A stretch of 34,779 bases of DNA, from the IMG/VR virus record IMGVR_UViG_2718218308_000002. The stretch is one strand, 5' to 3'. The translations under genes and the position numbers were made by a program. Below, in pieces: positions 1 through 34,258 of this stretch. Position 1 is the first letter of the stretch. Each line of letters starts with the position of its first letter. The DNA comes from a virus. Lineage: Duplodnaviria > Heunggongvirae > Uroviricota > Caudoviricetes. A model generated the notes under the pieces. That model had not been told where the DNA came from. It did no database searches and saw nothing but the letters and a program-made list of their open reading frames with translations.

Positions 1-585
1 CTATTCGATAATGGGTACTGTTGGCCATTCAATATCCGGTGCAGTTGTTGTATTAACACGGTTCAGCAACACCCGATACTTCTTCCAGGCTTCCAGCAAC
101 GAGGTTTCTTCCTCCGTTGCAATTTCCAGATCTGCAGCATCCTGAAGCGGCGCAATATGCTCACTGGCTACCTGCATCAGGCTGTTTTTTGTTTCTTCCG
201 CCTCCCGGATCCGGAACAGTTTTTCTGCTTCTGCATCTTTCACCCAGGCTGTGCCGTTCCACTTCTGATATTCCCCTCCCGGCGACAACCAGGTAACATT
301 TTCCGGTAATGAGCCGAGTTCAGAAATAAATAACGCGTCGCCGGAAGCCACGTCATAAACCGTTTTACCCCGATGATCTTCAACGAGATGCCACGATGAC
401 TCATCACTGTTGAAAACAGCCACGAAACCAGCCGGAATATCTGGCGGTGCAATATCGGTACTGTTTGCTGGCAGACCTGTATGAGGCGGAATATATGCAT
501 CACCTTCACCAATAAATTCATTAGTTCCGGACAGCAGATTATAAATTTTTATGGTCCGTGGTTGTTCACTCATTCTGAATGCCAT
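1..585 (-). CDS. tfa: Tail fiber assembly protein (Tfa-like), 194 aa; stop codon at 1..3
   Basis: Position immediately downstream of stf with start overlapping the stf stop; size and sequence recalled as typical of lambdoid Tfa (Rac TfaR-like). Confidence 0.8.
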
Positions 586-3500
586 TATGCAAGCCTCACA
601 ATATAGTTAAATGCGATGTTTTTGACGGTGTTTTCCGCGTTACCAGCAGCGTTAACGGTGATGGTGTGTCCATGTGAGCCAATCGCAACCGAGTGCGTAT
701 GAGCACCAATACCGACAGTATGTGCGTGAGCACCTGCAGATGCAGCTGTGCCGCTGACACTATGAGTGTGCGCTCCTGCAGCACTTGTATTCACACTGGC
801 CGCAGACACTACCTTATGTACTGACCCATTTTGTGACCACTGGCTGACTGCTGATGCGCCTGTGACACTATGAGTATGGTTTCCGGCACTTGCGGCTGTA
901 CCGCTCACACTGTGCGTATGCGCCCCGATGTTATTCGTGGATTTAGTGCCGTAATCAAACGACGATGTGGTTTTCGTACCCAAATCCGTACTGGATGCGC
1001 TGGCACTGTGGGTGTGCGATTTAATGCCGTCCTGTTCCTGAGACAATACGGCCCGACCACTGGCAGGTTTGCCCTTAATCGTCCAGCCACGCATATCAGG
1101 GATCACGCCTGACGGATAAGCGGCTGCAAGTTTCGGATATGCAGATTTGTCAAAAGTCTGCCCCTGCATCAGGGCATAACCAGACGGAACGGTATCTGAT
1201 GGCCACGGGATTGGTGCGCCGACTGGGTAGCTTTCTGGTGGAAGATTTTTCGAGGTATAAACTTCTGCCCAGTCTTCCTCAAAACCATAGCCATCTCTTG
1301 AGGAACGGTAGAACAGACCTCCATTTCTGTAATGTGCCTTCATCTGCAAGGTCCGGCAACTTCCGACTCCGGTATAGAAGTTAACCAGAATATAGCTGTC
1401 GCCAGAGCGGGTGACATTGTAAGCGCCTGATTCGGCATTCCATGGAACGCCCCCATCCGCATCGGCATACGTATCCGTTGCCCTTCTGGCAAAAGCAGCC
1501 ACATGCGCGGCGGTTAAAGTAATATCTTTGGAACCATCAAACTCAACACCAGAAACCAGTCTTGGCGTTTGCAGCTTTGTTGCTGTTAATGCATTACCGT
1601 TCAGACTTGCGGACAGTTTGGTTCCAATAACCAGTTCGCCGGTTGCGTTATCAATAGCAAACGGTCTTAATGTATTCCAGCCACCATAAACATCACCTTG
1701 ATTGGTAAGCAGCAGGTAAGTTTTAGCGCCATCATTACGCCATAATGCACCATACTCCCCACCTATCATTCGAATCTGATTACCACCACGCGCTACAATT
1801 TCGTCTGTGGCAAAAAGTTTTTTGCACGACAAGTTATCGTTAACGATTAACGAATGAGACTCATAAAAACCACGCCCACTCTTAAAATCAAGGATAACGT
1901 CCGCCGCGATACATTCAGTCGCTGGATTTGTTGCCCCAAACTTATAGGTCGTATCATTAACAACGAGATCAGCACCAGGTGCGGATATTGACAGGCCATC
2001 TTCGATAAACGCAAAAACAGGGAAAGCAGCGCCATCAACATAGAACACAGAGCGCAAATCATCGCCCTTATTACTCATCATTATTGAGTGGATGGCTCGT
2101 TCATTGTTTTGATATTGCCAGAACATTCCATAAGCATAACGCCCCCTGTCAGTCCAGCCACCAGGCATAACAAATCCGTTAAACTCGCAGTTATTCATCG
2201 GATCGCCTGCGGTTCGCGTTGCCGTGGTGATAATGACCCTTGATGCCAGTTCGCTTACTGAGCCAGCAGAACGCATAACAACAACAGGGTAATATTTTCC
2301 AGATGTTGCACCTGCAGGAGCGTTAACCCGCACATAACGCATACCACGCTTATCAGCAAAGTCTGTTTTACTGACCGCGTTAATGTTGTTCAGGAAGCGT
2401 CCCTTATCGGGTATATCAGCGCCGTTCTGGTCTTTCTGCAGACGTTTCTCAGCATTGTCATTGGCTGCTTTTACTGCCTTTGGCGTTGCCGCCAGCGTTT
2501 CAGACGTGCTGTTGGTCGCACTGCTGAGCTGTACTATCCCCTTTTTCGTCGTGCTCGCATCCTCAAGCGCCACGGCGGATGCAATATCCTCTGCCCGTTT
2601 TGCTGCTGTCTCGGCGCGCGTTGCCGCGGATTCCGCCGTACTTTTGCTCTGAGCTGCCGCCGTCGCACTACCAGCTGCCTCTGTCGCCTTCGTGGATGCC
2701 GTCGTGGCGCTGCCTTTCGCTGCTGATGCCTGTCTGCTCGCCTCATCTTTTGAAGCAGACGCAGATGATGCCGATGACGCCGCCGAACTGGCGGACGATG
2801 CAGCTGCCATTTTTGAGGATTCTGCACTGGTTTCCGAGGCTTTCGCGTTCGTTTCGGATGTCATCGCTGCGGATGCAGACCTCGCTGCTGCGCTGGCCTG
2901 TTCAGCGGCTTCGCCAGCCTTCGTTGTGGCTGTTGAAGCGGATGATGCGGCGCTTTCTGCCGATTTTCCGGCTGCGGTGGCACTGATTGAGGCCTGCCCG
3001 GCACTTGTTGACGCGGCACTGGCAGACGACGCAGCCGCTGTTTTTGAGCCTGCCGCAGCTGAGGCGCTCTGTCCCGCTGCCGTCTCAGAAGACCTGGCGT
3101 TCGTCTCGGACGTTTTTGCCGCCTTCGCGGAATTTCCTGCCGCTGTTGCCGAGGAGGCTGCACTACTGGCGCTCGAGGCTGCGCTCGTTTCTGATGATTT
3201 TGCCGCCTCTTTTGAAGCCGACGCATCCCGTGCTGAAGTGGCTGCTTCTGACGCTTTCGTGGTCGCGGTGGATGCAGAAGTGGCGGCTGATTGTTCTGAC
3301 GCTGCCGCATTCGTTTCTGACGTTTTCGCCGCACCGGCACTGGTGGCCGCCGCGCTTTTTGAGGACTCTGCAGCGGCAGCACTTTTTGAGGCTTCAGTGG
3401 CCTTTGTTGATGCCGTTCCTGCGCTGGAAGACGCTGACTGAGCCGACGACGCGGCCTGTCCGGCTGACGTGCTGGCTGCGCGTGCTGAGTCCGCAGCATC

Positions 3501-3944
3501 AGCCGCATGGGTTGCCGCCTCACGGGCTGATGTGCTGGCATCACTGGCTGACTTCTTCGCGGCTGCCGTGTTCTGTGCCACCGCGGACGCGTTACGCGCC
3601 ACCTCTTCCACCATCAGTTCAAAACGGCGCAGTGCCTCCGGACGGGCATCATCCTCCGTCATGGCACCGAGAAAATCATTCAGCGTACCGGGTTGAGAAT
3701 CTTCATACACGGTGATGGTCCCGGCATGTGACGGCGGGAATCCTTCCACCAACAGAATAACGCTGTACTGACCGTACTCAACGTCCATGCTGTAACGCCC
3801 GGCTTCATCCGGATTTTCTGAGGCCAGCGTGTTCACCACCACAGTGGTACTGTTACGTTTTGCTTTCAGCTGGATTGTGCAGTTCTGTACCGGTTTTCCT
3901 GTGCCGTCTTTCAGTACACCTGAAATCTTTACTGCCATATTCAT
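585..3944 (-). CDS. stf: Side tail fiber protein (Stf-like), 1119 aa
   Basis: N-terminus [20 protein letters not shown] resembles lambdoid Stf; long Ala/Ser/Thr-rich low-complexity central region; C-terminal His-rich GAHTHS-type repeats as in T4 gp37-type fiber tips; located after lom. Confidence 0.85.
2387..3602 (-). repeat. Low-complexity Ala/Ser/Thr-rich coding repeats inside stf (approximate bounds)
   Basis: Protein residues ~115-520 are reiterated SA/TA/SE-rich motifs (e.g. [17 protein letters not shown]); the repetitive GC-rich codons also create long spurious ORFs on the antisense strand and in other frames. Confidence 0.6.
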
Positions 3945-4668: not shown

Positions 4669-8070
<3,402 letters not shown>

Positions 8071-8087
8071 TCATGCTCCATAAACGA

Positions 8088-8110
8088 TAAAACCGCCCGG
8101 AGGCGGTTTC
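8088..8110 (-). terminator. Hairpin plus U-tract between I and J (possible attenuator or RNA stability element)
   Basis: Minus strand AACCGCC-tccg-GGCGGTT followed by TTTATCGTTT. Confidence 0.4.
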
Positions 8111-8127
8111 ACATAAAACATTTTGCA

Positions 8128-8769
8128 TCAGCGACCAATCACCACAACCTGACCACCATCCCCTTCGTCTGCCGTGCTGATCTCCTGAGAAACCACGCGT
8201 GACCCCACGCGCATTTCACCGTACAGAACCGGCAGAACATTGCCCTGGGCAACCATGTTATCCAGAGAAGAAAAATAGGTGTTCTGTTTGCCGTTATCCG
8301 TTGTCTGTGTGCGGGGGGTTTTGGGTTTAGGGGCCAGCATCTGTGCAACACCGCCAAGCGTCATACTGGCACCGAGAGAAAACAGCAGATTACTCGCCAT
8401 AATTCCTACCCCCGGCATCCATATAGCAACCGCCATAACAGCCGCCCCCAGCACAGCCTGAAACACACCGCCACTTTTGGCTCCTGCCAGACGCGGCACG
8501 ATATGGATCACGGCACCATTTTCCAGCGGCTCATTAAGACGGGCAGACAATTCGGTTTCACCTGCATCACGCCCGGCAATGCGTACCTGGTACCAGCCGT
8601 CGCTCAGTTTCTGACGAAATGCCGGGATCTGCATGGCCAGCGCCCGGATGGCTTCGGACCCCGTTTTCACTCGAAGGTCGATGCGGCGGCCAAATCGTTG
8701 TAAATCCCCGTAAAGGCAGATGCGTGCCATGCCCGGTGACGCCAGAGGGAGTGTGTGCGTCGCTGCCAT
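8128..8769 (-). CDS. I: Tail assembly protein I, 213 aa as the longest ORF; true start uncertain because it overlaps K
   Basis: N-terminus MAATHTLPLASPGMARICLYGDLQRFG and C-terminus matching lambda I as recalled; position between K and J. Confidence 0.85.
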   Translation of the reverse strand: MAATHTLPLASPGMARICLYGDLQRFGRRIDLRVKTGSEAIRALAMQIPAFRQKLSDGWYQVRIAGRDAGETELSARLNEPLENGAVIHIVPRLAGAKSGGVFQAVLGAAVMAVAIWMPGVGIMASNLLFSLGASMTLGGVAQMLAPKPKTPRTQTTDNGKQNTYFSSLDNMVAQGNVLPVLYGEMRVGSRVVSQEISTADEGDGGQVVVIGR

Positions 8770-9410
8770 TTGTCGGTGTACCTCTCTCGTTTGCTCAGTT
8801 GTTCAGGAATATGGTGCAGCAGCTCGCTGTCACCACAGTAAATGGCGGCATGATTCGGCACCGATGAACCAAAACAGCACAGCAGCACATCGCCCGGCTG
8901 CGCCGCTGACAACGGCACCTGATACAGCCCTGTGGCCTCCAGATTATCCAGATAGAGATTCTGACCGTTACGCCACCAGTCATCCCCGCGATGAAAATCC
9001 GGCATCTCAATTCCCGCCAGATGGTAAGCGTCCCGGAACAGCGTGTAACAGTCCGTTACCCCGTGCTCAAAGCGCCGCCCGGTGAGATGCGGCACACAGC
9101 GGAATTTATGAATCGCCCCCCGGCAGACCAGCCACCACGGCAAATCACTCTGTACCTGCAGCCGCCGGTCGGCCTCACTCAGCCAGGGCAGACCACCGGG
9201 GTGGCTGTGGACCAGCGCCACAATCTCTCCCTGCATTTTGGCCTGCAGCCAGTCCTCCGGCGACATCCGGAAATACTCCTCCGGCTCACCGGAGATATTC
9301 ACGCAGGGAAAATATCTTTCCTCCTCCGGCGTTCTCACCACGAAGCCGCACGACTCCGCTGGCGCACATCGCCGGGCGTGCGCCAGAATCGCTGATTCTG
9401 TCTCTGTCAT
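8667..9410 (-). CDS. K: Tail assembly protein K (JAB/MPN plus NlpC/P60-like), 247 aa
   Basis: HSHP metal-binding motif of the JAB/MPN domain; N-terminus MTETESAILAHARR as in lambda K; conserved position. Confidence 0.9.
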   Translation of the reverse strand: MTETESAILAHARRCAPAESCGFVVRTPEEERYFPCVNISGEPEEYFRMSPEDWLQAKMQGEIVALVHSHPGGLPWLSEADRRLQVQSDLPWWLVCRGAIHKFRCVPHLTGRRFEHGVTDCYTLFRDAYHLAGIEMPDFHRGDDWWRNGQNLYLDNLEATGLYQVPLSAAQPGDVLLCCFGSSVPNHAAIYCGDSELLHHIPEQLSKRERYTDKWQRRTHSLWRHRAWHASAFTGIYNDLAAASTFE

Positions 9411-9415
9411 GGGAT

Positions 9416-10114
9416 TTACTGCGAAAGTTTGTTAATGGAAAGGAAGCTGCCAAAGTTGCCGACATTATTGCGAAACTTACAGCCACTCAGGCATTTGCTG
9501 CATTTATCCTTCGTGATATCGGACGTCGGCTGGTCATATTCATCCGCGACCGCCGGACCGCTATAACCGCACTCATCGCCGCGATAGGTCCAGGTGCAGG
9601 TGTTGGCCAGCATGATACGTCCCGGAAAAACAGCGCCATCCGTTTCAGTCGGCGTGGACAGTACAAAAGAGGCACTGACCGCGCTCAGTTCGCTGCACTG
9701 CTCGATGCGCCAGCGGCTGATCACCTCCTGCTCCGGATCGGCTTCGCTGTTTCCGTTGACGAAGTTCACCGCATCCAGAAAGCGGGCGTAAACCTTACGC
9801 CGGACCACCGTTCCGCCGACCAGACTCTGCAGATCTTCCGCCATCCCGGTGATCATGCCGTGCAGGTTAGAGACCGTCAGTGTCGGACGGGCAGCACTGC
9901 CCTTGCCGTTCATCTCAAATCCACTCCCCTGAATGGGATAGGCCTGATACTGCCGACTCTGCCAGGTGACAGACTCACCTTTTTCGTTCTGCTCATTACA
10001 GAAAAAGTAGCGATCCCCGCCTACCTCGGTCAGGTCGATTTCCCAGAGCACCACGCTGGCCGACTGCTCCGCACGAATGCATTCATTCAGCGTTTCCTGT
10101 TGTATGTCCTGCAT
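9416..10114 (-). CDS. L: Minor tail protein L, 232 aa
   Basis: Length and sequence lambda-L-like; Cys cluster near the C-terminus; stop of M overlaps the start (TGATG). Confidence 0.9.
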   Translation of the reverse strand: MQDIQQETLNECIRAEQSASVVLWEIDLTEVGGDRYFFCNEQNEKGESVTWQSRQYQAYPIQGSGFEMNGKGSAARPTLTVSNLHGMITGMAEDLQSLVGGTVVRRKVYARFLDAVNFVNGNSEADPEQEVISRWRIEQCSELSAVSASFVLSTPTETDGAVFPGRIMLANTCTWTYRGDECGYSGPAVADEYDQPTSDITKDKCSKCLSGCKFRNNVGNFGSFLSINKLSQ

Positions 10115-10452
10115 CAGATCACCACTTCGTCAAACTGACACGAAAAATCGGTATAGGTGATATGTTCTGTCGCTGACCACGTTCGACACACCACTCTGAT
10201 TTTTCTGTTAATACCCGGCGGGCGCCAAAAAAAAGATTTATAGCCTTCATGCCGGGCTAAAAATTTTTCAAATGAATCACGTTCATTCGCCTCAACTTTG
10301 AAATCACAGGTGAAAACGCGCAGAGAATGATTAAGTCCATTTGGACTTCGTTGCTCATAACCATCGCCAAATCTTACAGTTTTTATCGATGGTTTATTTT
10401 CTGTTTTCATTCCATCCTCTGGTAACCAGTGAAATTCTTCCGTATTAGCCAC
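10114..10452 (-). CDS. M: Minor tail protein M (divergent), 112 aa as the ORF; alternative start at internal Met (MKTENK, codon 10408..10410)
   Basis: Conserved VRFGDGY motif and position between H and L; the gene body is noticeably AT-richer than its neighbours. Confidence 0.7.
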
Positions 10453-13400
10453 TTAACATTCCCCCATCACGTCGCATATTTAACAGATTGCCCTGCACCC
10501 GCTGATCAACCATCCCCATAAGTGCTTTTATTGCCTGAGGGCCAATCTCTCCATTCTGGCCGTCATTTTGAATAGTGATTTGGTATACAGGGGCATAGGT
10601 AATATCTCCGCCTCCATTACCACTTTTACTATTAATAGCTCTGACACCAAGAGAACCATCGGAAGTTCGTGTTAATGGCATAATGGCTTCCGGTCCAGCC
10701 TCACCAAAAACACCAGCCCCTTTTGCAAAAGCAAAAAATTGCGGGGAATCATAAATACCGTTCGAATACGTGCTCAATGACGGAGACTCATAAACACCGC
10801 CCTTTGCATTCGGAATAAATTTACTAATAGCACTCCCGATAGTTCCTAAAATCCCCCCAGAAGAACTGTTACTAATGCTGTCGAAAATCCCAGTAATTGA
10901 AGCCTTTAATGCTATTCGACTAAGATCCGAAATCACGGAAGTAGCGAAAGAACGAAAATTTGCCTTGCCTGTCGTGACAAAATCACCCAGCGCATCGGTC
11001 ATCCCATCAAACATCTGAGTCGTGGTTGATTTTATCTGCTCACTGATATCCTTAGTGTCATCCAGCCAGTTATTGAATCCCTGGGAGGCACCACTAACCC
11101 AGTCTCCTGCCTGAATATCGAGCTGCTCGTTTTTCTGTCTGACAATTTCTTTTTCCCGTTCCAGAGCATCATTCAGAGCCTGCATTTTCTCTTGAAAAAC
11201 ATGATCTGACATTCCACGGGATTTATCTACATAGTCACGTTCAAGTTGCAGACGCTGATTGTTATATCCATGTTCAATCCGCAGTAATTCCTGCTGGCGT
11301 TGCTGATTTTTATCGCCAACCCCATAACCAGCAATCTGAATATCATACCCCTGCTGACGATTATCAATCGAAGCCTGCAATGAATCACGCCATGCTGTTA
11401 TTTCGGCGGATTCCTTGATTAGCCTGTTATTTTTTTCAATCGCAACATTTTTCTCCATCAACGTGGTTATTTCTTCCCGGTGTAAGAGAAGCGATTTCTG
11501 ATCCTGGGTTAATTTCGATGATGGTCGTGACTCTAGGTCGGCAATCCGCTGACGCCACTTAACCAGTTCCTGTTCAGAGGAACTTAATTTAACGGTCAAC
11601 TCAGCTTGTGAACTTAGTAACGCATTCTGTTGATTCAGATGATCAATCATTCGTTGGGCTGCATCATCAGAATAACCTTTCGCCTTTGGTTGCTTTGGAT
11701 CTTTATAACGCTCATTTATTTGAGCGATAAGATTATTATATTCTTCCTTTGAATACTGATTCTTTAGCTTTTCCAGTTTTGCAAGTTCACTAGCTCTCTG
11801 CTGCTCCCGGGTCTGATATTGTTTTGAAAAGGCATCTGCTCTCTGTCTGAGTTCAATTCCTTCCTGTTGTCGCTTGTTGTAATCGTTTATTGATGAATTT
11901 AGTACGTCCTGAGCAATTTTTTCTGCTTGAAGTACGCCCAATTGCTGCTTTAATCGTGCCAGCCTTTTATTTTGAGCTCCGCCATCTCCAATGCCACCTA
12001 ACCCGAAAACTCCGGGTCGGGTATTTTTTTCTATTTCATCAATTTGACGGAGAACATCTGAGATTTTTTGATCAAGGGAGGCCTCACGGCCAATATCCAG
12101 CATGGAATCCCATGCCCATTTTGCGGAGTCTGCGACAGCTTTCCATGCAGTCTCAAGATAACCAAGATTTTCTTTAATCTGGTTGGTGCGCTGGATCATT
12201 GAGGATGAGTATTCTTCTGTCGCAATGCGGGCGGCCTCCTGCTGGTTCCCTTCATCCTGTAGCGCCTTAATCTGGTTATAAGTCGCAAGTGTCAGAAAAT
12301 GGTACTGATCATTAAGTTTTGATATGGCACTGACAGGATCCTTTGCAATTTCATTGAAGTCATTAACCAGTTGTTCGGTTGATATTCCTGTTACTTCGCT
12401 CGTTTTTACTATCGCTGTCGTCACTTGCTCCAGCGAACTGCTCGCTACCTTTCCCGAACGCACAAGCTGATTTAATACTGCCGCCGCAGCACCAGTTGTC
12501 GAATCAGCCGCATTCCCGGCACGTTGAGCTATATCGCCCAATTGCCCGCTGGTTGTCCCCAACTGATTTCCGGTAAGAATAAGAGATTTATTAAATTCGT
12601 CCTGCTCCTGAGAGCCTTTATAGTAAGCCAGTCCTAAGACCCCAACGGCTGCTGCGGCCAGGGTAAAAGGATTAATTAATCCCAGCACATAAGAACCTAC
12701 ACCTTTGATCGCCGGGCCAATCCCACCGAACATATCTTTTAGCTGGCCGCCCTGCTGCATTAACACCATAAATGGCGACTGACCAGTGGACAACCCAACA
12801 ACAATATCCGTCATTTGTGCAGGCAACATGCGCATAGCAAAAGCCGTTTGTTTTGCCGACATTCCGGTTTTGCTTAATTGTGATTGAGTAACCTCAAGCT
12901 CACTCCGCATAGCACAAAGTTTTCCAGAAAGCTCCTCATACATTTCAGGAGAAAGCATCCCCTTAGCTTTTGCTTCATTGAGCTGTTTCTGTTGTTCTAC
13001 CAGACGATTAAAAGCAGTTCCGACAGGATCAAGTTGAGCAATCAGACGTTGCAAAGCAACAACCTGTTCATCATGCGCTTTTGCTGCTTCTCGCTCTGCC
13101 TGAGCCTCTCCAGTAAGCTCTCGCCGTGTTTCCTGTATTTTTCGGCTATAATTCTCAAACTGAGAACCATTTATTTTCCCGGATGCAAACGCAGCATTAA
13201 GTTCATCATGCTGTTGTTCAAGATTTCTTAGCGCCGCAGCCAGAGGGTCGATCTTGTCCAGCATTCTTTGAAAGGCCTGAGCCTGCGCTTCCTGCTGGGC
13301 GGCAGCAAGTTTTCCGGCCTTCTCGGCTTCTCTCTGCGCTTGCGCAACCCCGCTCAATTCCTCTGTGGTTTCATTAAGTTTACGGACAAGAAATTCATAT

Positions 13401-13678
13401 TCTTCTTTATCAATAAGCCCTTTATCGAAAAATTTCTTTAATTCAGAATAGCGTCGACCGACAGTATCAATTGCGGCACCAACTGGATCAATAGCTGCTT
13501 TTAATTTTGCGAGCGCGTTCTTCTCATCTTCTGTTGCCTTAGTCACTTTCCCTGCGCTATTTGCAGCAGTTTCCCCAGCCTGCGTCATTTTGACTAATGA
13601 GGAGGTCAGATTGTCAGCATTATTTTTCGCTCCAGTGCTATCAATAATTATTGCGAGACGCGAGGTTTGCTCTGCCAT
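10445..13678 (-). CDS. H: Tail tape measure protein H, 1077 aa
   Basis: Long coiled-coil-rich protein directly downstream of G/G-T; hydrophobic central segment; AGGAG RBS upstream of the ATG. Confidence 0.85.
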
Positions 13679-13698
13679 TTATTAAAACTCCTGACAAC

Positions 13699-13723
13699 AA
13701 AAAACCCACCGCGAGGTGGGTTT
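13699..13723 (-). terminator. Strong hairpin plus U-tract between T and H
   Basis: Minus strand AAACCCACC-tcgc-GGTGGGTTT followed by TTTGTTG, about 20 nt upstream of the H RBS. Confidence 0.5.
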
Positions 13724-13808
13724 CAGGCGACATAATAGTAGATATAGCGATTACGAGGCCACGCAATGCTTTTCTCAAGGAGCATCATCGATTTAATTAA
13801 AGACACCA

Positions 13809-14509
13809 TCACATCTCTGTAACAGAGTGTACGTAATTAACAACTACACACTGCTCCTGAAAATACTGGTCATCCAGTGCAAAGATCACTGCTTCAAATT
13901 CATCGCGCTCAATCAATACCGGATGAGTGGCTAAATATTCATTTATCTCTGTCAGAGATAAAGGCAAAGGCACCCCAGCCATTCCAGCATAACGTCGGGC
14001 ACGGGATATTACCGAATAGGCGTACAACAACTCCTTAAGCACCGGGTCTATTTCTGGTTCCGGTATCGGTGGCAACCTGAGTTTTTCTCGCTTCCATCTT
14101 GCCTTTTCCCCCCTTTCTCCCCCGAACTCCGATAACCACCGCTGGGCAGCTATGGCTTTTTTATCGTATCCTGCTTCTGCTGCTCTTTACCCTGGGCGAT
14201 GCTGGCTGCTTCTGCAAGGATCTGCCAGTACAACTCTGGATTCTGCTTAAGCAGCGCGATCCCTCGTTCTGCCGTATATTCCAGTGCAACCTCAACACCA
14301 TTAACCAGTTCACCAACCCCTTTCCAGTCTTTCAGCAGATAACGAGCGGCATTATCAATGAGTAAATCATCAACAGAATCCACCTCGGAAACCTTTGAAA
14401 TATCAAACTCCTTCGTTCCGACGTGCAAACTGGCATCCATTTTCTCAATGTGGCGACGGATTAATGCATTACGGGAGCGATACTGATCGTTATCGCTGCT
14501 TGCCACCAA
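13809..14509 (-). CDS. G-T: Tail assembly chaperone G-T fusion made by programmed -1 frameshift (about 233 aa)
   Basis: The -1 frame is open from the heptamer A AAA AAG (plus-strand 14156..14162) to the stop at 13809; the T ORF has no ATG of its own (track starts it at TTG). Confidence 0.65.
14150..14509 (-). CDS. G: Tail assembly chaperone G, 119 aa
   Basis: Small acidic protein immediately upstream of the tape measure gene; ends ...DTIKKP with the slippery heptamer in its last codons. Confidence 0.7.
   Translation of the reverse strand: MVASSDNDQYRSRNALIRRHIEKMDASLHVGTKEFDISKVSEVDSVDDLLIDNAARYLLKDWKGVGELVNGVEVALEYTAERGIALLKQNPELYWQILAEAASIAQGKEQQKQDTIKKP
14156..14162 (-). other. Programmed -1 ribosomal frameshift slippery heptamer A_AAA_AAG
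   Basis: Read directly: mRNA AUA AAA AAG CCA UAG, with the -1 frame continuing ...KKAIAAQRWLSEFGG... into T. Confidence 0.65.
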
Positions 14510-14538
14510 CAGTTTTAACCCGTCTACAGGTTTTAAGT

Positions 14539-15596
14539 GGCTTTGTTGAATAAATCGAACTTTTGCTGAGTTGAAGGATCAGATCACGTATCTTCCCGAC
14601 AACGCAGACCGTTCCGTGGCAAAGCAAAAGTTCAAAATCACCAACTGGCCCACCTACAATAAAGCCCTCATCAACCGTGGCTCCATAACTTTCTGGCTGG
14701 ATGAGGAAGCTATTCAGGCCTGGTATGAGTCGGCAACGCCTTCATCACGGGGAAGACCTCAGCGCTATTCTGATCTCGCCATCACCACCGTTCTGGTCAT
14801 TAAACGCGTGTTCAGGTTGACCCTGCGGGCTGCACAGGGTTTTATTGATTCCATTTTTACACTGATGAATGTTCCGTTGCGCTGCCCGGATTACACCAGT
14901 GTCAGCAAGCGCGCAAAGTCGGTTAATGTCAGTTTCAAAACGTTCACCCGGGGTGAAATCGCGCATCTGGTGATTGATTCCACCGGGCTGAAGGTCTTTG
15001 GTGAAGGCGAATGGAAAGTCAAAAAACACGGCAAAGAACGCCGTCGTATATGGCGAAAGTTGCATCTGGCAGTTGACAGCAAAACACATGAAATCATCTG
15101 TGCAGACCTGTCGCTGAACAATGTGACGGACTCAGAAGCCTTCCCGGGTCTTATCCGGCAGACTCACAGAAAAATCAGGGCAGCATCGGCAGACGGCGCT
15201 TACGACACCCGGCTCTGTCACGATGAACTGCGGCGTAAGAAAATCAGCGCGCTTATCCCTCCCCGAAAAGGTGCGGGTTACTGGCCCGGTGAATATGCAG
15301 ACCGTAACCGTGCAGTGGCTAATCAGCGAATGACCGGGAGTAATGCGCGGTGGAAATGGACAACAGATTACAACCGTCGCTCGATAGCGGAAACGGCGAT
15401 GTACCGGGTAAAACAGCTGTTCGGGGGGTTCACTGACGCTGCGTGACTACGATGGTCAGGTTGCGGAGGCTATGGCCCTGGTACGAGCGCTGAACAAAAT
15501 GACGAAAGCAGGTATACCTGAAAGCGTGCGTATTGCCTGAAAACACAACCCGCTACGGGGGAGACTTACCCGAAATCTGATTTATTCAACAAAGCC
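14539..15596 (+). mobile_element. IS903-like insertion sequence (IS5 family), copy 1, 1058 bp, no target-site duplication
   Basis: Terminal inverted repeats GGCTTTGTTGAATAAATC at both ends; flanks GTTTTAAGT and GTTGAAGCC differ; sequence recalled as the Tn903/IS903 ends. Confidence 0.85.
14571..15446 (+). CDS. tnp: IS903-like transposase, 291 aa; C-terminal ~33 codons continue in the +1 frame to 15540
   Basis: DDE-family motifs ([21 protein letters not shown]-like [14 protein letters not shown]); identical protein in all three copies. Confidence 0.85.
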   Translation: MKDQITYLPDNADRSVAKQKFKITNWPTYNKALINRGSITFWLDEEAIQAWYESATPSSRGRPQRYSDLAITTVLVIKRVFRLTLRAAQGFIDSIFTLMNVPLRCPDYTSVSKRAKSVNVSFKTFTRGEIAHLVIDSTGLKVFGEGEWKVKKHGKERRRIWRKLHLAVDSKTHEIICADLSLNNVTDSEAFPGLIRQTHRKIRAASADGAYDTRLCHDELRRKKISALIPPRKGAGYWPGEYADRNRAVANQRMTGSNARWKWTTDYNRRSIAETAMYRVKQLFGGFTDAA

Positions 15597-19158: not shown

Positions 19159-19901
19159 TGATTTCCATCAACATTACACTCTGATTTTTTAATTCATCGA
19201 TCACATCCTCTGGACGGGAATCCTGATCGATAAATTTCAACGCCTGCAACACCCGAACCGCATCAATCTGACGTATATCACCGCCCTGACGCAATGACTG
19301 AACAGCCAGCGCGGAGGATGAGTCAAACACCTGGGCAGATACATCCAGTTCAGTGCGCACATCCACATTGCCACCGCAACTCTCTCCGCTCCATTCCGCC
19401 ATTATCTGGAGAATATTATCGAGGGCATCTTCGAGGGAGTTCGCCATTGTATAAAGCGGCGAGTGTTCCTGCATCCGCTCTTCATTAGTCTGATCAACAG
19501 ATTTGGTGGATGTATTTTCAGCCCGCAGAAGTTTAGCGCCGGCATGACGCATCTGATTTTCCAGCTTCTCAAGTGATGTTTCGCCAGATTCTATCGCTGC
19601 GCCACTATGTTCAACATATTCGAGGCCATTTTTTGTTCTGTCCTCAAAAATCGTAGCCGTGGATGCACCAACCGTCAGTTCTTCATTCCTGTCCAGCCCG
19701 TAGGCCACCAGCAATGGAACGCGGGCAACATGAAGAATATTGTCCTGCTCGCTCTGGCTTTGCCAGTGCTTGATATTCAGCAAGCCAAGATTAAGCAATG
19801 GCGGTGTACCACGCATAAACCCTGTTTTCTTCGTATACAGTGTTACCAGAGGAATATCATCACGGCTGGTATTCCATGACTCATGAGGTAATGACTCCAA
19901 C

Positions 19902-20405
19902 TTATTGATAGTGTTTTATGTTCAGATAATGCCCGATGACTTTGTCATGCAGCTCCACCGATTTTGAGAACGACAGCGACTTCCGTCCCAGCCGTGCCAG
20001 GTGCTGCCTCAGATTCAGGTTATGCCGCTCAATTCGCTGCGTATATCGCTTGCTGATTACGTGCAGCTTTCCCTTCAGGCGGGATTCATACAGCGGCCAG
20101 CCATCCGTCATCCATACCACGACCTCAAAGGCCGACAGCAGGCCCAGAAGACGCTCCAGCGTGGCCAGCGTGCGTTCACCGAATACGTGCGCAACAACCG
20201 TCTTCCGGAGCCTGTCATACGCGTAAAACAGCCAGCGCTGGCGCGATTTAGCCCCGACGTATCCCCACTGTTCGTCCATTTCCGCGCAGACGATGACGTC
20301 ACTGCCCGGCTGTATGCGCGAGGTTACCGACTGCGGCCTGAGTTTTTTAAATGGCGGAAAATCGTGTTGAGGCCAACGCCCATAATGCGGGCGGTTGCCC
20401 GGCAT
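19902..20405 (-). CDS. insB: IS1 InsB frame (made as InsAB' by frameshift), 167 aa
   Basis: Sequence [51 protein letters not shown] recognised as IS1 InsB. Confidence 0.95.
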
Positions 20406-20599
20406 CCAACGCCATTCATGGCCATATCAATGATTTTCTGGTGCGTACCGGGTTGAGAAGCGGTGTAAGTGAACTGCAGTTGCCATGTTTTACGGCAGTG
20501 AGAGCAGAGATAGCGCTGATGTCCGGCGGTGCTTTTGCCGTTACGCACCACCCCGTCAGTAGCTGAACAGGAGGGACAGCTGATAGAAACAGAAGCCAC
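20324..20599 (-). CDS. insA: IS1 InsA, 91 aa
   Basis: Sequence [42 protein letters not shown] recognised as IS1 InsA. Confidence 0.95.
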
Positions 20600-21324
20600 T
20601 GGAGCACCTCAAAAACACCATCATACACTAAATCAGTAAGTTGGCAGCATCACCGACTCATGAAGCATCCAGACAGATTCGCCATTAGTACCTTCGCTGC
20701 GTCGATAAATTTCTACTCGACGGGGCATAATATGGCGGATCTGCTCCACCTTCTTCTGCCCGAAATCATCACCATCAATAATGATGACCTCTTTTATACG
20801 CAAATCAGTGAGAACAACTTTCCCTTTTTCAACTTTCGATTTCCATCCAATAACCTGGCGTGGATTCAGCATCGTAACGTACGGGCGACCACCGGCCGCG
20901 TTTTCATCGGCTTTTGTCCGAATCTCGTTCATATCCGTTCGTGGATAGTCCACCAGCGCATGTGCCACACCATACTGAAATGCGAGACTGAAAAATTGCT
21001 GCGCCCACACATCCAGTCGGCTCCCCTCCATGTCGATATTTTCTGCATATTCCCTGATTTTTTCCGGCGTTTCCTCACTCAATACTGTCGGCTCTGCAAA
21101 TATGCGCCCAATATTTTGTTTGATGCTTTCTTCATACACAGGAAGTAACGTAGCCACAGACAGGCGTTTTTTATAAGCGTCTTCATCTTCATTAGGCCAT
21201 TTGGGGAGATAATTTTCCCCCTGCCTGCGCATTTCAAGCGTACCGCCCATCAATGCGTCGTTAATATCCCACGCCTCCAGCATATCGTTATAGTCGAGGT
21301 TGGGTGTTGATATATCAGCCATAA

Positions 21325-24845: not shown

Positions 24846-25608
24846 GCATGATCTCCACCATGCGCTGCGTCATCCGGACAAATCCATTTTCAATAGCCTG
24901 CTGATAATCAATGATCACCAGCGCCGACTCCTCGAAAAAACACTGAATTTCAGAGGGGGCGTGAGCGTAATAGTCCGCAATTCTGCTGAAATTAAACACC
25001 GTGTGACGTTCTGCCGCACACAGGAGGAATTTCTCAATATCAGGCTCAAGGGACGCCGAACGTATCCGGCTGATCAGCTCCTGAGTTTTCGTATCGTCGT
25101 ACAGTTCACTGATATCCGGTTTACCGCCCGACGGCTCATAAACAGGCGTATCAATTTTCGTCGTATACGGCTCCTCCTCATTTCCTGTACCGGGCAAAAC
25201 ATCCGTCAACAGTTCATCAATTTCTGTCGGGATGAAGCCTGTCAGGGAGACATCAAAATCAGCATTGATTAGGTCCGACAGCTCCATCCGCAACAGATCT
25301 TCATCCCAGCCAGCATTCATCGGCAGGCGATTATCTGCCAGGCGGTACGCCTTTTTCTGCTCATCCGTCAGGCCAGACAGAACAATGACCGGAACAGAAT
25401 CCATTTTGAGCATTTCAGCCGCCATAACACGACCGTGACCCGCAATAATTTCGCCCTTTTCGTCAATCAGCACCGGATTAGTCCAGCCGAATTGCTTAAT
25501 ACTTTCTACCAGTTGTGCCACCTGCTCAGGGCTGTGCGTCCTGGCGTTGTGCGCATACGGTGACAATTCTTGTAATGGGCGATAGACTATCTTTAATTTC
25601 TCGCTCAT
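24817..25608 (-). CDS. ParB/Srx-like nuclease-domain protein, 263 aa
   Basis: ParB N-terminal motif VLIDEKGEIIAGHGRVMAA; acidic C-terminus. Confidence 0.75.
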   Translation of the reverse strand: MSEKLKIVYRPLQELSPYAHNARTHSPEQVAQLVESIKQFGWTNPVLIDEKGEIIAGHGRVMAAEMLKMDSVPVIVLSGLTDEQKKAYRLADNRLPMNAGWDEDLLRMELSDLINADFDVSLTGFIPTEIDELLTDVLPGTGNEEEPYTTKIDTPVYEPSGGKPDISELYDDTKTQELISRIRSASLEPDIEKFLLCAAERHTVFNFSRIADYYAHAPSEIQCFFEESALVIIDYQQAIENGFVRMTQRMVEIMHGGEEEEYA

Positions 25609-25624
25609 ACAGCCTTGCTTTATG

Positions 25625-25659
25625 AATAAAACGCACCCCAGCAGCCAGTGCTACTGGGG
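25625..25659 (-). terminator. Terminator-like hairpin downstream of trkG
   Basis: Minus strand CCCCAG...CTGGGG stem followed by TGCGTTTTATTC. Confidence 0.45.
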
Positions 25660-25745
25660 ACGGAGGGGTTGCTGGTAAAGTTAGGTATTGGATCAATGAG
25701 TGAGTCAACATAATATTAAACTCACAATTATAAATCAGCCATATA

Positions 25746-27203
25746 TTAGGAGCGCCAAAAAAAACCTGAAAACAATATAATAACAGGATAAATTTCAAGG
25801 CGACCAAGAATCATAGCTATGCACATTAAACATTTTGCAATGTCATTAAGCACTCCGAATGACGATGCAGTAGCCCCAAAACCTAATCCCATATTATTAA
25901 TACATGCAGCCACTGTTGCAAATGATGTAAGAAAATCATATCCCATACCATTTAACACCAGTATAAAAAACACCGTGAAGAGAGTATAAAGAAAAAAGAA
26001 ACTCCATACAGACCTCATTACACGATCTGTAACTATCTTCCCTCCTACATTTACACTCAACAACGCTCTGGGATGAGAAAGCTGATTTATCTCGTGTTTG
26101 CTTTGTTTGAAAAGTATAAGAAATCGAAGTGACTTAATTCCACCACAAGTTGAACCTATACATCCCCCAAAGAAACTTGACAACAGCAAAAACACTATCG
26201 TGTGCGTGGGCCAACTTGCATAATCCTGCGTAGCTAAACCATTATCAGTGAGCATGGAGCTGGCAAGAAAAAACGAATGAATAAAACTTCCATGCAAGTC
26301 ATACATACCTATATGCCAGACCTGGAAAGAGGTAACAATGATCACCCCTAAGGCTATTAACAGAAAGAAACGAAGTTCAATATCTCTGATTAAAGGTTTT
26401 ATCGTTTTCCTGCTAATAACAATATACCAAAGAGTGAAGTTGAAAGCCGATAGCAGGGAAAAAGAACCAGCCACCAGCTCAACCAAATAGTTATTAAAAT
26501 ATCCGATACTCTCGCTATGAGTTGAGAAACCACCAAGCGAAACTGTGGAAATCCCGTGACAAATAGCATCAAACAAAGGCATTCCTGCAAGTCTATAACA
26601 GACAATACAAGCAATACCTAATAAAGAATAAGTTATCCACAGTGTCCGTGACGTATCGGCCAGGCGGGGAGTGAGTTTGTCATCCTTAAATGGCCCCGGC
26701 ATTTCTGACTGATAAAGCTTTGCACCACCAATACCCAATAATGGCAATACAGCAACCGCCAGAACAATAACTCCTAAACCACCTATAAAATTTAACTGTG
26801 ACCGATAGTACAAATATGCCCGAGGTAATGAACTAACATCATCAATTACAGTTGCTCCTGTTGTTGTTATTCCAGAAACCCCTTCAAACAGAGCATCAAT
26901 GAACGTTAAATTAAGTTCTGAGTCAATCCATAAAGGGAATGCACTAATAACAGAAAACAAAATCCAAAACATTACAATTATAATAAACCCATCACGGGTA
27001 CGTAATTGAATGCCAGATTTCTTAGTTGTATACCACGCTCCGCCACCAATGCAAAAAAATATAACGAAAGTTATAAAGAAAACGAACAGGCTTTTTTCTT
27101 TATAAAACAATGCTACAACCATTGGTGGCAACATTGAAAGACTATAGAGCCAAACCAGGAACCCACACATATGAGTAACAACTCTTACATGAGATGTATT
27201 CAT
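25746..27203 (-). CDS. trkG: TrkH/TrkG-family potassium uptake protein, about 485 aa from MNTSHV; ORF track extends it to 27221
   Basis: Polytopic membrane protein with TrkH-type motifs (GVSGITTTGATV, LGGFSTH); AT-rich relative to flanking phage genes; prophage-borne like Rac trkG of K-12 (from memory). Confidence 0.9.
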   Translation of the reverse strand: MNTSHVRVVTHMCGFLVWLYSLSMLPPMVVALFYKEKSLFVFFITFVIFFCIGGGAWYTTKKSGIQLRTRDGFIIIVMFWILFSVISAFPLWIDSELNLTFIDALFEGVSGITTTGATVIDDVSSLPRAYLYYRSQLNFIGGLGVIVLAVAVLPLLGIGGAKLYQSEMPGPFKDDKLTPRLADTSRTLWITYSLLGIACIVCYRLAGMPLFDAICHGISTVSLGGFSTHSESIGYFNNYLVELVAGSFSLLSAFNFTLWYIVISRKTIKPLIRDIELRFFLLIALGVIIVTSFQVWHIGMYDLHGSFIHSFFLASSMLTDNGLATQDYASWPTHTIVFLLLSSFFGGCIGSTCGGIKSLRFLILFKQSKHEINQLSHPRALLSVNVGGKIVTDRVMRSVWSFFFLYTLFTVFFILVLNGMGYDFLTSFATVAACINNMGLGFGATASSFGVLNDIAKCLMCIAMILGRLEIYPVIILFSGFFWRS

Positions 27204-27340
27204 ATCTAAATATTCTTTCAATTATAACCACCTTGCTGCAATATTATGATTATACTGTATAAAATTTAACTCCTCTTAGATCTTACTTCACTGTTCCTTA
27301 TGAAACAATCATCAAAATGAATCATATTGTAGTTAAGATT

Positions 27341-27817
27341 TTACTTTAAACACTGCTCGGTTATGTATTGCTGAGCACCTTCAAGTTGGGCCTGCATCAT
27401 TACCAGTCGTTCCCGGAGGGTGAAATAATCCCGTTCAGCGGTGTCTGCCAGTCGGGGGGAGGCTGCATTATCCACGCCGGAGGCGGTGGTGGCTTCACGC
27501 ACTGACTGACAGACTGCTTTGATGTGCAACCGACGACGACCAGCGGCAACATCATCACGCAGAACATCATTTTCAGCTTTCGCATCAGCTAACTCCTTCG
27601 TGTATTTTGCATCGAGCGCAGCAACATCACGCTGACGCATCTGCATGTCAGTAATTGCCGCGTTCGCCAGCTTCAGTTCTCTGGCATTTTTGTCGCGCTG
27701 TTCTTTGTAGGCGATGGCGTTATCACGGTAATGATTAACACCCCATGACAGGCAGACGACGATGCAGATAACCAGAGCGGAGATAATCGCGGTTACTCTG
27801 TTCATTGCTGACCCCAC
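27341..27817 (-). CDS. Rz: Rz i-spanin, 158 aa (possibly starting at MNRV)
   Basis: N-terminal TM anchor, coiled-coil periplasmic domain; follows endolysin; contains Rz1 in the +1 frame. Confidence 0.8.
27400..27585 (-). CDS. Rz1: Rz1 o-spanin lipoprotein, 61 aa, embedded in Rz
   Basis: Lipobox VVGC, proline-rich mature region [15 protein letters not shown]. Confidence 0.75.
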
Positions 27818-28186: not shown

Positions 28187-29244
28187 GGCTTTGTTGAATA
28201 AATCGAACTTTTGCTGAGTTGAAGGATCAGATCACGTATCTTCCCGACAACGCAGACCGTTCCGTGGCAAAGCAAAAGTTCAAAATCACCAACTGGCCCA
28301 CCTACAATAAAGCCCTCATCAACCGTGGCTCCATAACTTTCTGGCTGGATGAGGAAGCTATTCAGGCCTGGTATGAGTCGGCAACGCCTTCATCACGGGG
28401 AAGACCTCAGCGCTATTCTGATCTCGCCATCACCACCGTTCTGGTCATTAAACGCGTGTTCAGGTTGACCCTGCGGGCTGCACAGGGTTTTATTGATTCC
28501 ATTTTTACACTGATGAATGTTCCGTTGCGCTGCCCGGATTACACCAGTGTCAGCAAGCGCGCAAAGTCGGTTAATGTCAGTTTCAAAACGTTCACCCGGG
28601 GTGAAATCGCGCATCTGGTGATTGATTCCACCGGGCTGAAGGTCTTTGGTGAAGGCGAATGGAAAGTCAAAAAACACGGCAAAGAACGCCGTCGTATATG
28701 GCGAAAGTTGCATCTGGCAGTTGACAGCAAAACACATGAAATCATCTGTGCAGACCTGTCGCTGAACAATGTGACGGACTCAGAAGCCTTCCCGGGTCTT
28801 ATCCGGCAGACTCACAGAAAAATCAGGGCAGCATCGGCAGACGGCGCTTACGACACCCGGCTCTGTCACGATGAACTGCGGCGTAAGAAAATCAGCGCGC
28901 TTATCCCTCCCCGAAAAGGTGCGGGTTACTGGCCCGGTGAATATGCAGACCGTAACCGTGCAGTGGCTAATCAGCGAATGACCGGGAGTAATGCGCGGTG
29001 GAAATGGACAACAGATTACAACCGTCGCTCGATAGCGGAAACGGCGATGTACCGGGTAAAACAGCTGTTCGGGGGGTTCACTGACGCTGCGTGACTACGA
29101 TGGTCAGGTTGCGGAGGCTATGGCCCTGGTACGAGCGCTGAACAAAATGACGAAAGCAGGTATACCTGAAAGCGTGCGTATTGCCTGAAAACACAACCCG
29201 CTACGGGGGAGACTTACCCGAAATCTGATTTATTCAACAAAGCC
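28187..29244 (+). mobile_element. IS903-like copy 2, 1058 bp, with 9-bp target-site duplication GGTATGTAG
   Basis: Same terminal inverted repeats as copy 1; identical 9-mers at 28178..28186 and 29245..29253; inserted within the endolysin gene. Confidence 0.9.
28219..29094 (+). CDS. tnp: IS903-like transposase (copy 2), 291 aa, same frameshifted C-terminus
   Basis: Protein identical to copies 1 and 3. Confidence 0.85.
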
Positions 29245-33200: not shown

Positions 33201-34258
33201 GGCTTTGTTGAATAAATCAGATTTCGGGTAAGTCTCCCCCGTAGCGGGTTGTGTTTTCAGGCAATACGCACGCTTTCAGGTATACCTGCTTTCGTCATTT
33301 TGTTCAGCGCTCGTACCAGGGCCATAGCCTCCGCAACCTGACCATCGTAGTCACGCAGCGTCAGTGAACCCCCCGAACAGCTGTTTTACCCGGTACATCG
33401 CCGTTTCCGCTATCGAGCGACGGTTGTAATCTGTTGTCCATTTCCACCGCGCATTACTCCCGGTCATTCGCTGATTAGCCACTGCACGGTTACGGTCTGC
33501 ATATTCACCGGGCCAGTAACCCGCACCTTTTCGGGGAGGGATAAGCGCGCTGATTTTCTTACGCCGCAGTTCATCGTGACAGAGCCGGGTGTCGTAAGCG
33601 CCGTCTGCCGATGCTGCCCTGATTTTTCTGTGAGTCTGCCGGATAAGACCCGGGAAGGCTTCTGAGTCCGTCACATTGTTCAGCGACAGGTCTGCACAGA
33701 TGATTTCATGTGTTTTGCTGTCAACTGCCAGATGCAACTTTCGCCATATACGACGGCGTTCTTTGCCGTGTTTTTTGACTTTCCATTCGCCTTCACCAAA
33801 GACCTTCAGCCCGGTGGAATCAATCACCAGATGCGCGATTTCACCCCGGGTGAACGTTTTGAAACTGACATTAACCGACTTTGCGCGCTTGCTGACACTG
33901 GTGTAATCCGGGCAGCGCAACGGAACATTCATCAGTGTAAAAATGGAATCAATAAAACCCTGTGCAGCCCGCAGGGTCAACCTGAACACGCGTTTAATGA
34001 CCAGAACGGTGGTGATGGCGAGATCAGAATAGCGCTGAGGTCTTCCCCGTGATGAAGGCGTTGCCGACTCATACCAGGCCTGAATAGCTTCCTCATCCAG
34101 CCAGAAAGTTATGGAGCCACGGTTGATGAGGGCTTTATTGTAGGTGGGCCAGTTGGTGATTTTGAACTTTTGCTTTGCCACGGAACGGTCTGCGTTGTCG
34201 GGAAGATACGTGATCTGATCCTTCAACTCAGCAAAAGTTCGATTTATTCAACAAAGCC
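33201..34258 (-). mobile_element. IS903-like copy 3 (inverted), 1058 bp, no target-site duplication
   Basis: Same terminal inverted repeats; flanks TTGATTTGA and CGTGGGAGG differ; joins the nin region to the 3' part of the integrase. Confidence 0.85.
33351..34226 (-). CDS. tnp: IS903-like transposase (copy 3), 291 aa, same frameshifted C-terminus
   Basis: Protein identical to copies 1 and 2. Confidence 0.85.
   Translation of the reverse strand: MKDQITYLPDNADRSVAKQKFKITNWPTYNKALINRGSITFWLDEEAIQAWYESATPSSRGRPQRYSDLAITTVLVIKRVFRLTLRAAQGFIDSIFTLMNVPLRCPDYTSVSKRAKSVNVSFKTFTRGEIAHLVIDSTGLKVFGEGEWKVKKHGKERRRIWRKLHLAVDSKTHEIICADLSLNNVTDSEAFPGLIRQTHRKIRAASADGAYDTRLCHDELRRKKISALIPPRKGAGYWPGEYADRNRAVANQRMTGSNARWKWTTDYNRRSIAETAMYRVKQLFGGFTDAA

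Follow-up and report, generated by a model that had tools for sequence, protein, structure and literature searches.

The gene M of the 34,779-nucleotide stretch of DNA analysed here (the window, taken at its full length) very probably encodes the distal tail protein that is native to a non-lambda tail shaft of Rac type, to which a lambda-type L-K-I-J cassette has been joined at the M stop codon and L start codon. A low-GC module (approximately 0.41–0.50), which carries the head genes for the DUF4055 portal, Mu-F-like, and P22-type coat proteins along with the tail tube, G/T chaperone, H, and M genes, thereby abuts a high-GC (0.56–0.59) host-recognition cassette of lambda type that consists of L-K-I-J, then lom and stf. 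The original transfer could have run in either direction, with the cassette entering the shaft or the shaft entering the cassette. The initial annotation had proposed the mosaic replacement of a single small gene, M, within an otherwise lambda-like tail tip module. A real joint does exist at the M stop/L start, but the single-gene swap does not stand, as the border between H and M is not a joint.

Gene M (10114–10452, minus strand) is an intact open reading frame of 112 amino acids with a GTG start, and the PGAP coding sequence in an identical Escherichia coli copy matches the coordinates of the window ORF. Judged from sequence comparison, its product is a genuine member of the PF05939 / lambda gpM family. 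The PF05939 profile ('Phage_min_tail') scores 109.8 bits against a cut-off of 39, with protein residues 5–111 covering positions 1–108 of the 108 in the profile. A phmmer search of the PDB matches residues 6–111 with residues 3–108 of lambda gpM (8IYK chain M, E 2e-25), and BLAST aligns residues 7–111 with lambda gpM at 42% amino acid identity (E 1.5e-33). The motifs VRFGDGY.QR...GLN, FL..H.G..F.W.PP, and V.C..WS, together with a C-terminal VV, are invariant in the M alignment and are shared with lambda gpM. The earlier view that M keeps only the VRFGDGY core was therefore overstated. By homology to the solved gpM, the M protein would adopt a tail-tube-like beta-sandwich with an extended loop; a single-sequence AlphaFold2 model has a mean pLDDT of 45.3.

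M also resembles its lambda counterpart in length, in its location between the tape measure gene and L, and in its overlapping stop and start codons. The H gene overlaps the start of M by 8 nucleotides, and M is translationally coupled to L, with base 10114 common to the M stop codon (TGA, 10116–10114) and the L start codon (ATG, 10114–10112) in the sequence TGATG. However, 58% of the residues differ between the two proteins, and the GC content is 0.41 for M compared with 0.56 in lambda. The partners of M are likewise unlike those of lambda, namely a tape measure protein of 1077 amino acids (28% identical) and a 320-residue tail tube protein, which is present in intact copies.

Downstream of M, the lambda-type cassette begins with gene L (9416–10114, minus strand), which matches PF05100 with 326 bits and is 93.5% identical to lambda gpL. 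It continues on the same strand with K (8667–9410, carrying JAB and NlpC/P60 domains), which is 97% identical to lambda K over the common 198 amino acids, I (8128–8769, 79%), and the central tail fibre gene J (4669–8067, 90%), and is followed by lom and stf. These four genes combine high amino acid identity (79–97%) with lambda-like composition, with GC and GC3 values of 0.558 and 0.674 for L, 0.594 and 0.681 for K, 0.572 and 0.575 for I, and 0.562 and 0.679 for J. Their initial description as close lambda homologs is thus borne out.

The K gene of the window, like those of PhiR49_1 and Tritos, encodes 247 amino acids with a complete N-terminal JAB domain. The reference lambda K (compared region 9133–9876) is annotated with 199 amino acids. 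Its N-terminus appears from the sequence to be frameshifted or truncated relative to its relatives, because the 48 codons upstream are out of frame and include a stop.

The same description had been extended to H, for which it fails. Gene H (10445–13678, minus strand) encodes a tape measure protein of 1077 amino acids with the Pfam domains TMP_2, TMP_4, and Tape_meas_lam_C. It is only 28% identical to lambda gpH over 854 aligned positions, is 224 amino acids longer than the 853 of the lambda protein, and has a GC content of 0.448 and a GC3 of 0.383. Beyond H lie a T-like (13809–14075) and a G-like (14150–14509) tail chaperone gene of the same low-GC module, both on the minus strand, and neither shows BLAST similarity to lambda T and G. 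The GC contents of M, H, G-like, and T-like genes are 0.41–0.48, compared with 0.54–0.59 for their lambda counterparts, and none of the four combines high amino acid identity to lambda with lambda-like composition. An AT-rich M with 42% identity to its lambda counterpart, beside L, K, I, and J genes at 79–97%, is what a swap of M alone inside a lambda-like H-M-L-K-I-J array would produce. However, a tape measure gene that is equally AT-rich and at least as divergent from lambda, and chaperone genes unrelated to those of lambda by BLAST, make such a swap highly improbable.

Composition places M with H. M has a GC content of 0.410 and a GC3 of 0.345, which correspond to the 11th and 29th percentiles, respectively, of the 339-nucleotide windows of H itself, whereas every in-frame window of this length in L, K, I, or J is less AT-rich. 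A synonymous-codon model fits M better when trained on H than when trained on L, K, I, and J, by 15.3 nats. The initial remark that M is AT-richer than its neighbours therefore holds relative to L, K, I, and J (0.41 versus 0.56–0.59) but not relative to H.

The transition between the two compositions is abrupt. In a maximum-likelihood analysis of positions 4669–14509, the sole significant GC step is at 10075, where GC content falls from 0.566 to 0.449 (likelihood ratio 135; 500 block shuffles all stay below it), and GC3 drops from about 0.67 to 0.35 inside approximately 70 nucleotides across L and M. GC content does not change stepwise at the H|M border, and the best candidate for a second step within 10137–14509 lacks significance, being reached in 86 of 500 shuffles. 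The GC discontinuity anticipated by the initial annotation is therefore present, but as a single step at 10075 rather than as an island, with M sharing the codon usage of H. A single-gene island should have both flanks from one lineage and differ from both in composition and in phylogenetic neighbours; instead, the only breakpoint is that between M and L.

Alignments place the mosaic junction in the same interval. Nucleotide identity between the window and lambda or PhiR49_1 is approximately 45% through M, and shifts to approximately 93–99% from the last 20 or so nucleotides of M onward. The five M types of the window, lambda, Tritos, BP-4795, and phi467 converge at CTGATGCAGGA, which corresponds to the M stop/L start. 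In megablast comparisons, lambdoid phages cease to match the window at 10066, 10117, or 10136. Because the alignments converge and the megablast matches end there, we define the junction zone as 10066–10136, an interval that also contains the GC change point.

The distribution of relatives separates M from L in the same manner. Among 50,697 phage records, M is found at 99% identity or more in ten, with no intermediates at 60–99% identity. The same ten records carry H at 95% identity or more, whereas L is present at 90% identity or more in 116 records. Lambda, Tritos, and phi467 have L genes that are 93–94% identical to that of the window, but their H and M genes are only 24–36% and 40–56% identical, respectively. 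Lambda and Tritos also share K at 96–97% and J at 90% (the phi467 locus excludes K, I, and J). The M protein of the window recurs with 100% identity in SPF_0923 and E. coli ATCC 43896, and with 99–100% identity in Shigella flexneri. In a pattern-seeded scan of GTDB with one genome per species, which can miss intermediates, this M type was found only in S. flexneri (99%) and Escherichia ruysiae (97%), and the next match was at 44%. As M shares its close relatives with H and not with L, M belongs with H and the M|L border is a recurrent module boundary; the replacement of a single gene is therefore refuted. H and M form one module, of Rac-type head and tail-shaft origin.

We also considered whether M and H simply diverged rapidly in place within the lambda lineage, with no horizontal exchange. 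Both are generally among the faster-evolving tail genes, and in non-mosaic modules (from Providencia, Pantoea, Xenorhabdus, Neisseria, and others), where GC content is uniform across H, M, L, and K, M genes at 33–44% identity are paired with L genes at 44–55%. By this yardstick the L of the window is discordant, since co-divergence would predict an identity of about 50% to lambda rather than 94%. The drop in GC3 within some 70 nucleotides also argues against divergence in place, as does the recurrence of the M|L seam with at least four other H/M types. The five types sit on L genes of which four are 93–94% identical, and the fifth, that of BP-4795, is 77% identical. We therefore consider it very unlikely that divergence in place accounts for the pattern.

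Within the lineage, the M|L seam is also the limit of recent exchange. Compared with E. ruysiae, the window has a synonymous divergence (dS) of 0.042 for H and 0.014 for M, but 0.157 for L, and relative to SPF_0923 the values are 0.005 for H and 0.014 for M, but 0.334 for L. Roughly 4,200 E. coli genomes have an L match, and genomes contain a median of two L-homologous places, and up to seven. The L-J alleles have likely been replaced repeatedly by homologous exchange with co-resident lambdoid prophages, and the exchange tracts would stop at M|L. Since lambdoid homology ends at this seam, later L-J exchanges would end there as well and the step would stay sharp. Recombination between lambda and defective prophages, Rac included, has been shown experimentally (De Paepe et al. 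2014, PMC3945230).

The low-GC block itself appears to be composite, because homology to a Klebsiella prophage, ST16-OXA48phi5.1, ends inside H. By tblastn, H amino acids 1–726 (window 13678–11468) match this prophage at 63%, and the break falls at approximately amino acids 726–737 (11440–11500). The prophage also carries relatives of the MuF (73%), connector (51–69%, with one at 38%), tube (70%), G (75%), and T (62%) genes. It has no match to the H C-terminus or to M, and its own tail tip genes are non-lambda. From the sequence, this break looks like an older mosaic joint that parts the length-determining portion of H from its tip-associated C-terminus.

These data raise the possibility of a three-piece mosaic, in which the C-terminal part of H (approximately amino acids 738–1077) and M, together about 10114–11467, are a separate older segment between a Klebsiella-prophage-like head and shaft and the L-J genes. 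The extent of the Klebsiella homology and the non-lambda tip of that prophage agree with this arrangement. In addition, the last 150 or so amino acids of H appear by eye in the alignment to be much nearer the BP-4795 type than is the rest of H; the identity of H to that type is 36% over 434 amino acids. However, no GC change accompanies the break: amino acids 1–737 and 738–1077 have GC contents of 0.453 and 0.439 and GC3 values of 0.383 and 0.384. The break can be explained equally well if the Klebsiella lineage swapped its own tip, and within Escherichia H and M always occur together. We therefore regard the three-piece arrangement as a possibility, although not the likelier one, and rank it second to the joint between a Rac-type shaft and a lambda-type cassette.

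The window lies in a Rac-type prophage of Escherichia/Shigella, at the ompN-uspF/trkG locus. Most of the stretch 19–30118 is collinear with 2184312–2215552 of E. coli ATCC 43896 (NZ_CP024278) in nine blocks with 87–99.9% nucleotide identity, interrupted by IS elements and one deletion. Besides the IS elements, the J segments 4732–5047 and 5329–5601 have no block matching NZ_CP024278. The gene order is tfaR, stf, lom, J, I, K, L, M, H, and so on to the P22-type coat, Mu-F-like, DUF4055 portal, terminase, ParB-like, trkG, and lysis genes; the attachment sites of the prophage fall outside the window. Of 5,426 complete E. coli genomes, 707 (about 13%) carry the exact L|M|H junction, and in these it is always annotated as the usual tail genes.

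Other Rac-type regions, such as those of ATCC 43896 (2.18–2.21 Mb of NZ_CP024278) and SPF_0923 (ON032529), share with the window an identical M, an H that is 99–100% identical, the M|L junction, and a chromosomal neighbourhood of ompN, uspF ... pinR, tfaR, stf, lom, J ... trkG. In contrast to these regions, the window copy carries three IS5-family copies and one IS1 and is missing approximately 2.6 kb with the tube, terminator-like, and connector genes. It also has L-J alleles other than those of SPF_0923.

The trkG potassium transporter gene (25746–27221), a cargo of Rac-type prophages, is the most AT-rich stretch of the window (GC 0.32–0.42). The ON032529 record, deposited as 'Salmonella phage SPF_0923', includes the chromosomal genes ompN, uspF, sitABCD, and trkG, and is a Rac-type prophage region plus host flanks rather than a phage genome. 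Nine of the ten 'phage' records that carry M (vB_EcoS-*) come from a prophage-prediction study of clinical isolates and not from induced particles, and all ten look like prophages called in silico. Searching the literature for intact Rac virions gave nothing relevant.

One IS5-family element (14539–15596, 1058 bp, with terminal inverted repeats GGCTTTGTTGAATAAATC...) presumably resembles the IS903 group. It replaces approximately 2.57 kb of the intact Rac-type copy (25005–27570 in that copy), affecting window positions 14502–15596. Lost with this DNA are the genes for the tail tube protein and a terminator-like protein, as well as three small head-tail genes. The IS/deletion junction occurs as a contiguous match in none of the 5,426 complete E. 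coli genomes, and the lone record with at least 80% coverage matches it as three pieces across 4.85 kb.

An IS1 (19887–20654, 768 bp, with InsA and InsB ORFs at 20324–20599 and 19902–20405) lies inside the DUF4055 portal gene, where the alignment with the intact copy overlaps by 9 bp, in keeping with a target-site duplication. Two further IS5-family copies (28187–29244 and 33201–34258) are 100% identical, are in inverted orientation, and flank 3,956 bp; the first interrupts an rrrD-like lysozyme gene and has a 9-bp duplication. Together, the inverted copies might form a composite transposon or bring about an inversion.

With its tube, terminator-like, and head-tail genes lost, the prophage in the window cannot build a tail, and with the tail tube gene missing, tail function in this copy is not to be assumed. 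One might accordingly ask whether M is AT-rich merely as a degenerating pseudogene of a defective prophage, given the IS insertions and the deletion of the tube gene. Yet the M reading frame is intact with a match to the entire Pfam profile, independent genomes whose prophages are intact encode an M protein 100% identical to this one, and the dN/dS of the H module relative to E. ruysiae is 0.27. Decay is the least probable of all the explanations we weighed, and can be virtually dismissed. The composition of M is instead that of the Rac-type shaft to which it very probably belongs.

The location of the seam corresponds to a feature of tail architecture. Lambda gpM is the distal tail protein and forms a hexameric ring with a tail-tube fold, whose beta-sandwich face lies on the last gpV ring and whose extended-loop (E-loop) face stacks electrostatically on the trimeric gpL/gpJ ring (PMC10721106). 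Because the gpM ring contacts the gpL/gpJ ring in lambda, the genetic seam between M and L matches a ring-to-ring interface. On its tube side, the M protein of the window would fit together with the tube protein and tape measure of its own module, and it would dock the foreign L/J ring through a conserved part of the protein. By this reasoning, M is co-inherited with the tube and tape measure that it must fit, and what is exchanged as a unit is the receptor-binding tip encoded by L-K-I-J.

The strongest conservation in M is in VRFGDGY.QR...GLN, which is kept in all H/M types that sit on the near-identical L-J cassette. By analogy with gpV topology, in which it would sit before the flanking helix, this segment probably corresponds to the extended loop, which stacks on L/J, a placement that would explain its retention. 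A bolder reading, which we put forward tentatively and think somewhat less likely to be right than wrong, is that the segment is a universal docking surface by which a lambda host-range cassette can be plugged onto unrelated shafts. In that case, crossovers would preferentially fall in the short conserved DNA around the M stop/L start, which includes the ribosome-binding site of L, and a possible design rule for engineered chimeric siphophage tails would follow.

In Ur-lambda, the N-terminal domain of the side tail fibre forms a collar at the gpV/gpM junction and contacts K2, W6, and R80 of gpM (PMC12617516). Of these contacts, the W and R are kept in the M of the window, and K2 is not. The stf gene of the window (585–3944) has a lambda-type domain in its N-terminal 95 or so amino acids, and V (in intact copies) and M are heterologous.

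Among other phages, the next closest M proteins are those of the Stx-converting phages BP-4795 and phi467 (47–51%), which also resemble the window in having tape measure proteins of about 1080 amino acids, with C-terminal 150 or so residues that look similar by eye. However, their M proteins are still approximately 50% divergent, and in BP-4795 H and M are high in GC (0.57) and the L-J genes are 63–85% identical to those of the window. The phi467 M (6992–7363) is annotated with 123 amino acids, loses similarity to other M proteins after approximately residue 75, and runs into L, and its sequence suggests a frameshift in that record.

The window therefore belongs to a very common Rac-type prophage with a chimeric tail, and its H should no longer be read as lambda-like. 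It provides a natural example in which the host-recognition exchange unit of lambdoid phages starts exactly at L, below the distal tail protein. From the sequences, an M that is 42% identical to that of lambda apparently serves an L/J hub that is 94% identical, which may interest those engineering host range. In kind, nothing here is new: the mosaicism is of the standard lambdoid sort, with a joint at a gene boundary that has already been annotated. Comparisons of HK97 and HK022 are said to show lambdoid genome mosaicism with joints at gene boundaries. As in the mosaicism described for lambdoid phages (De Paepe et al. 2014, PMC3945230), the breakpoint is sharp and falls at a gene border, modules are common to otherwise different phages, and the common module bears signs of repeated homologous exchange, with no difference in kind between that pattern and the one we describe.
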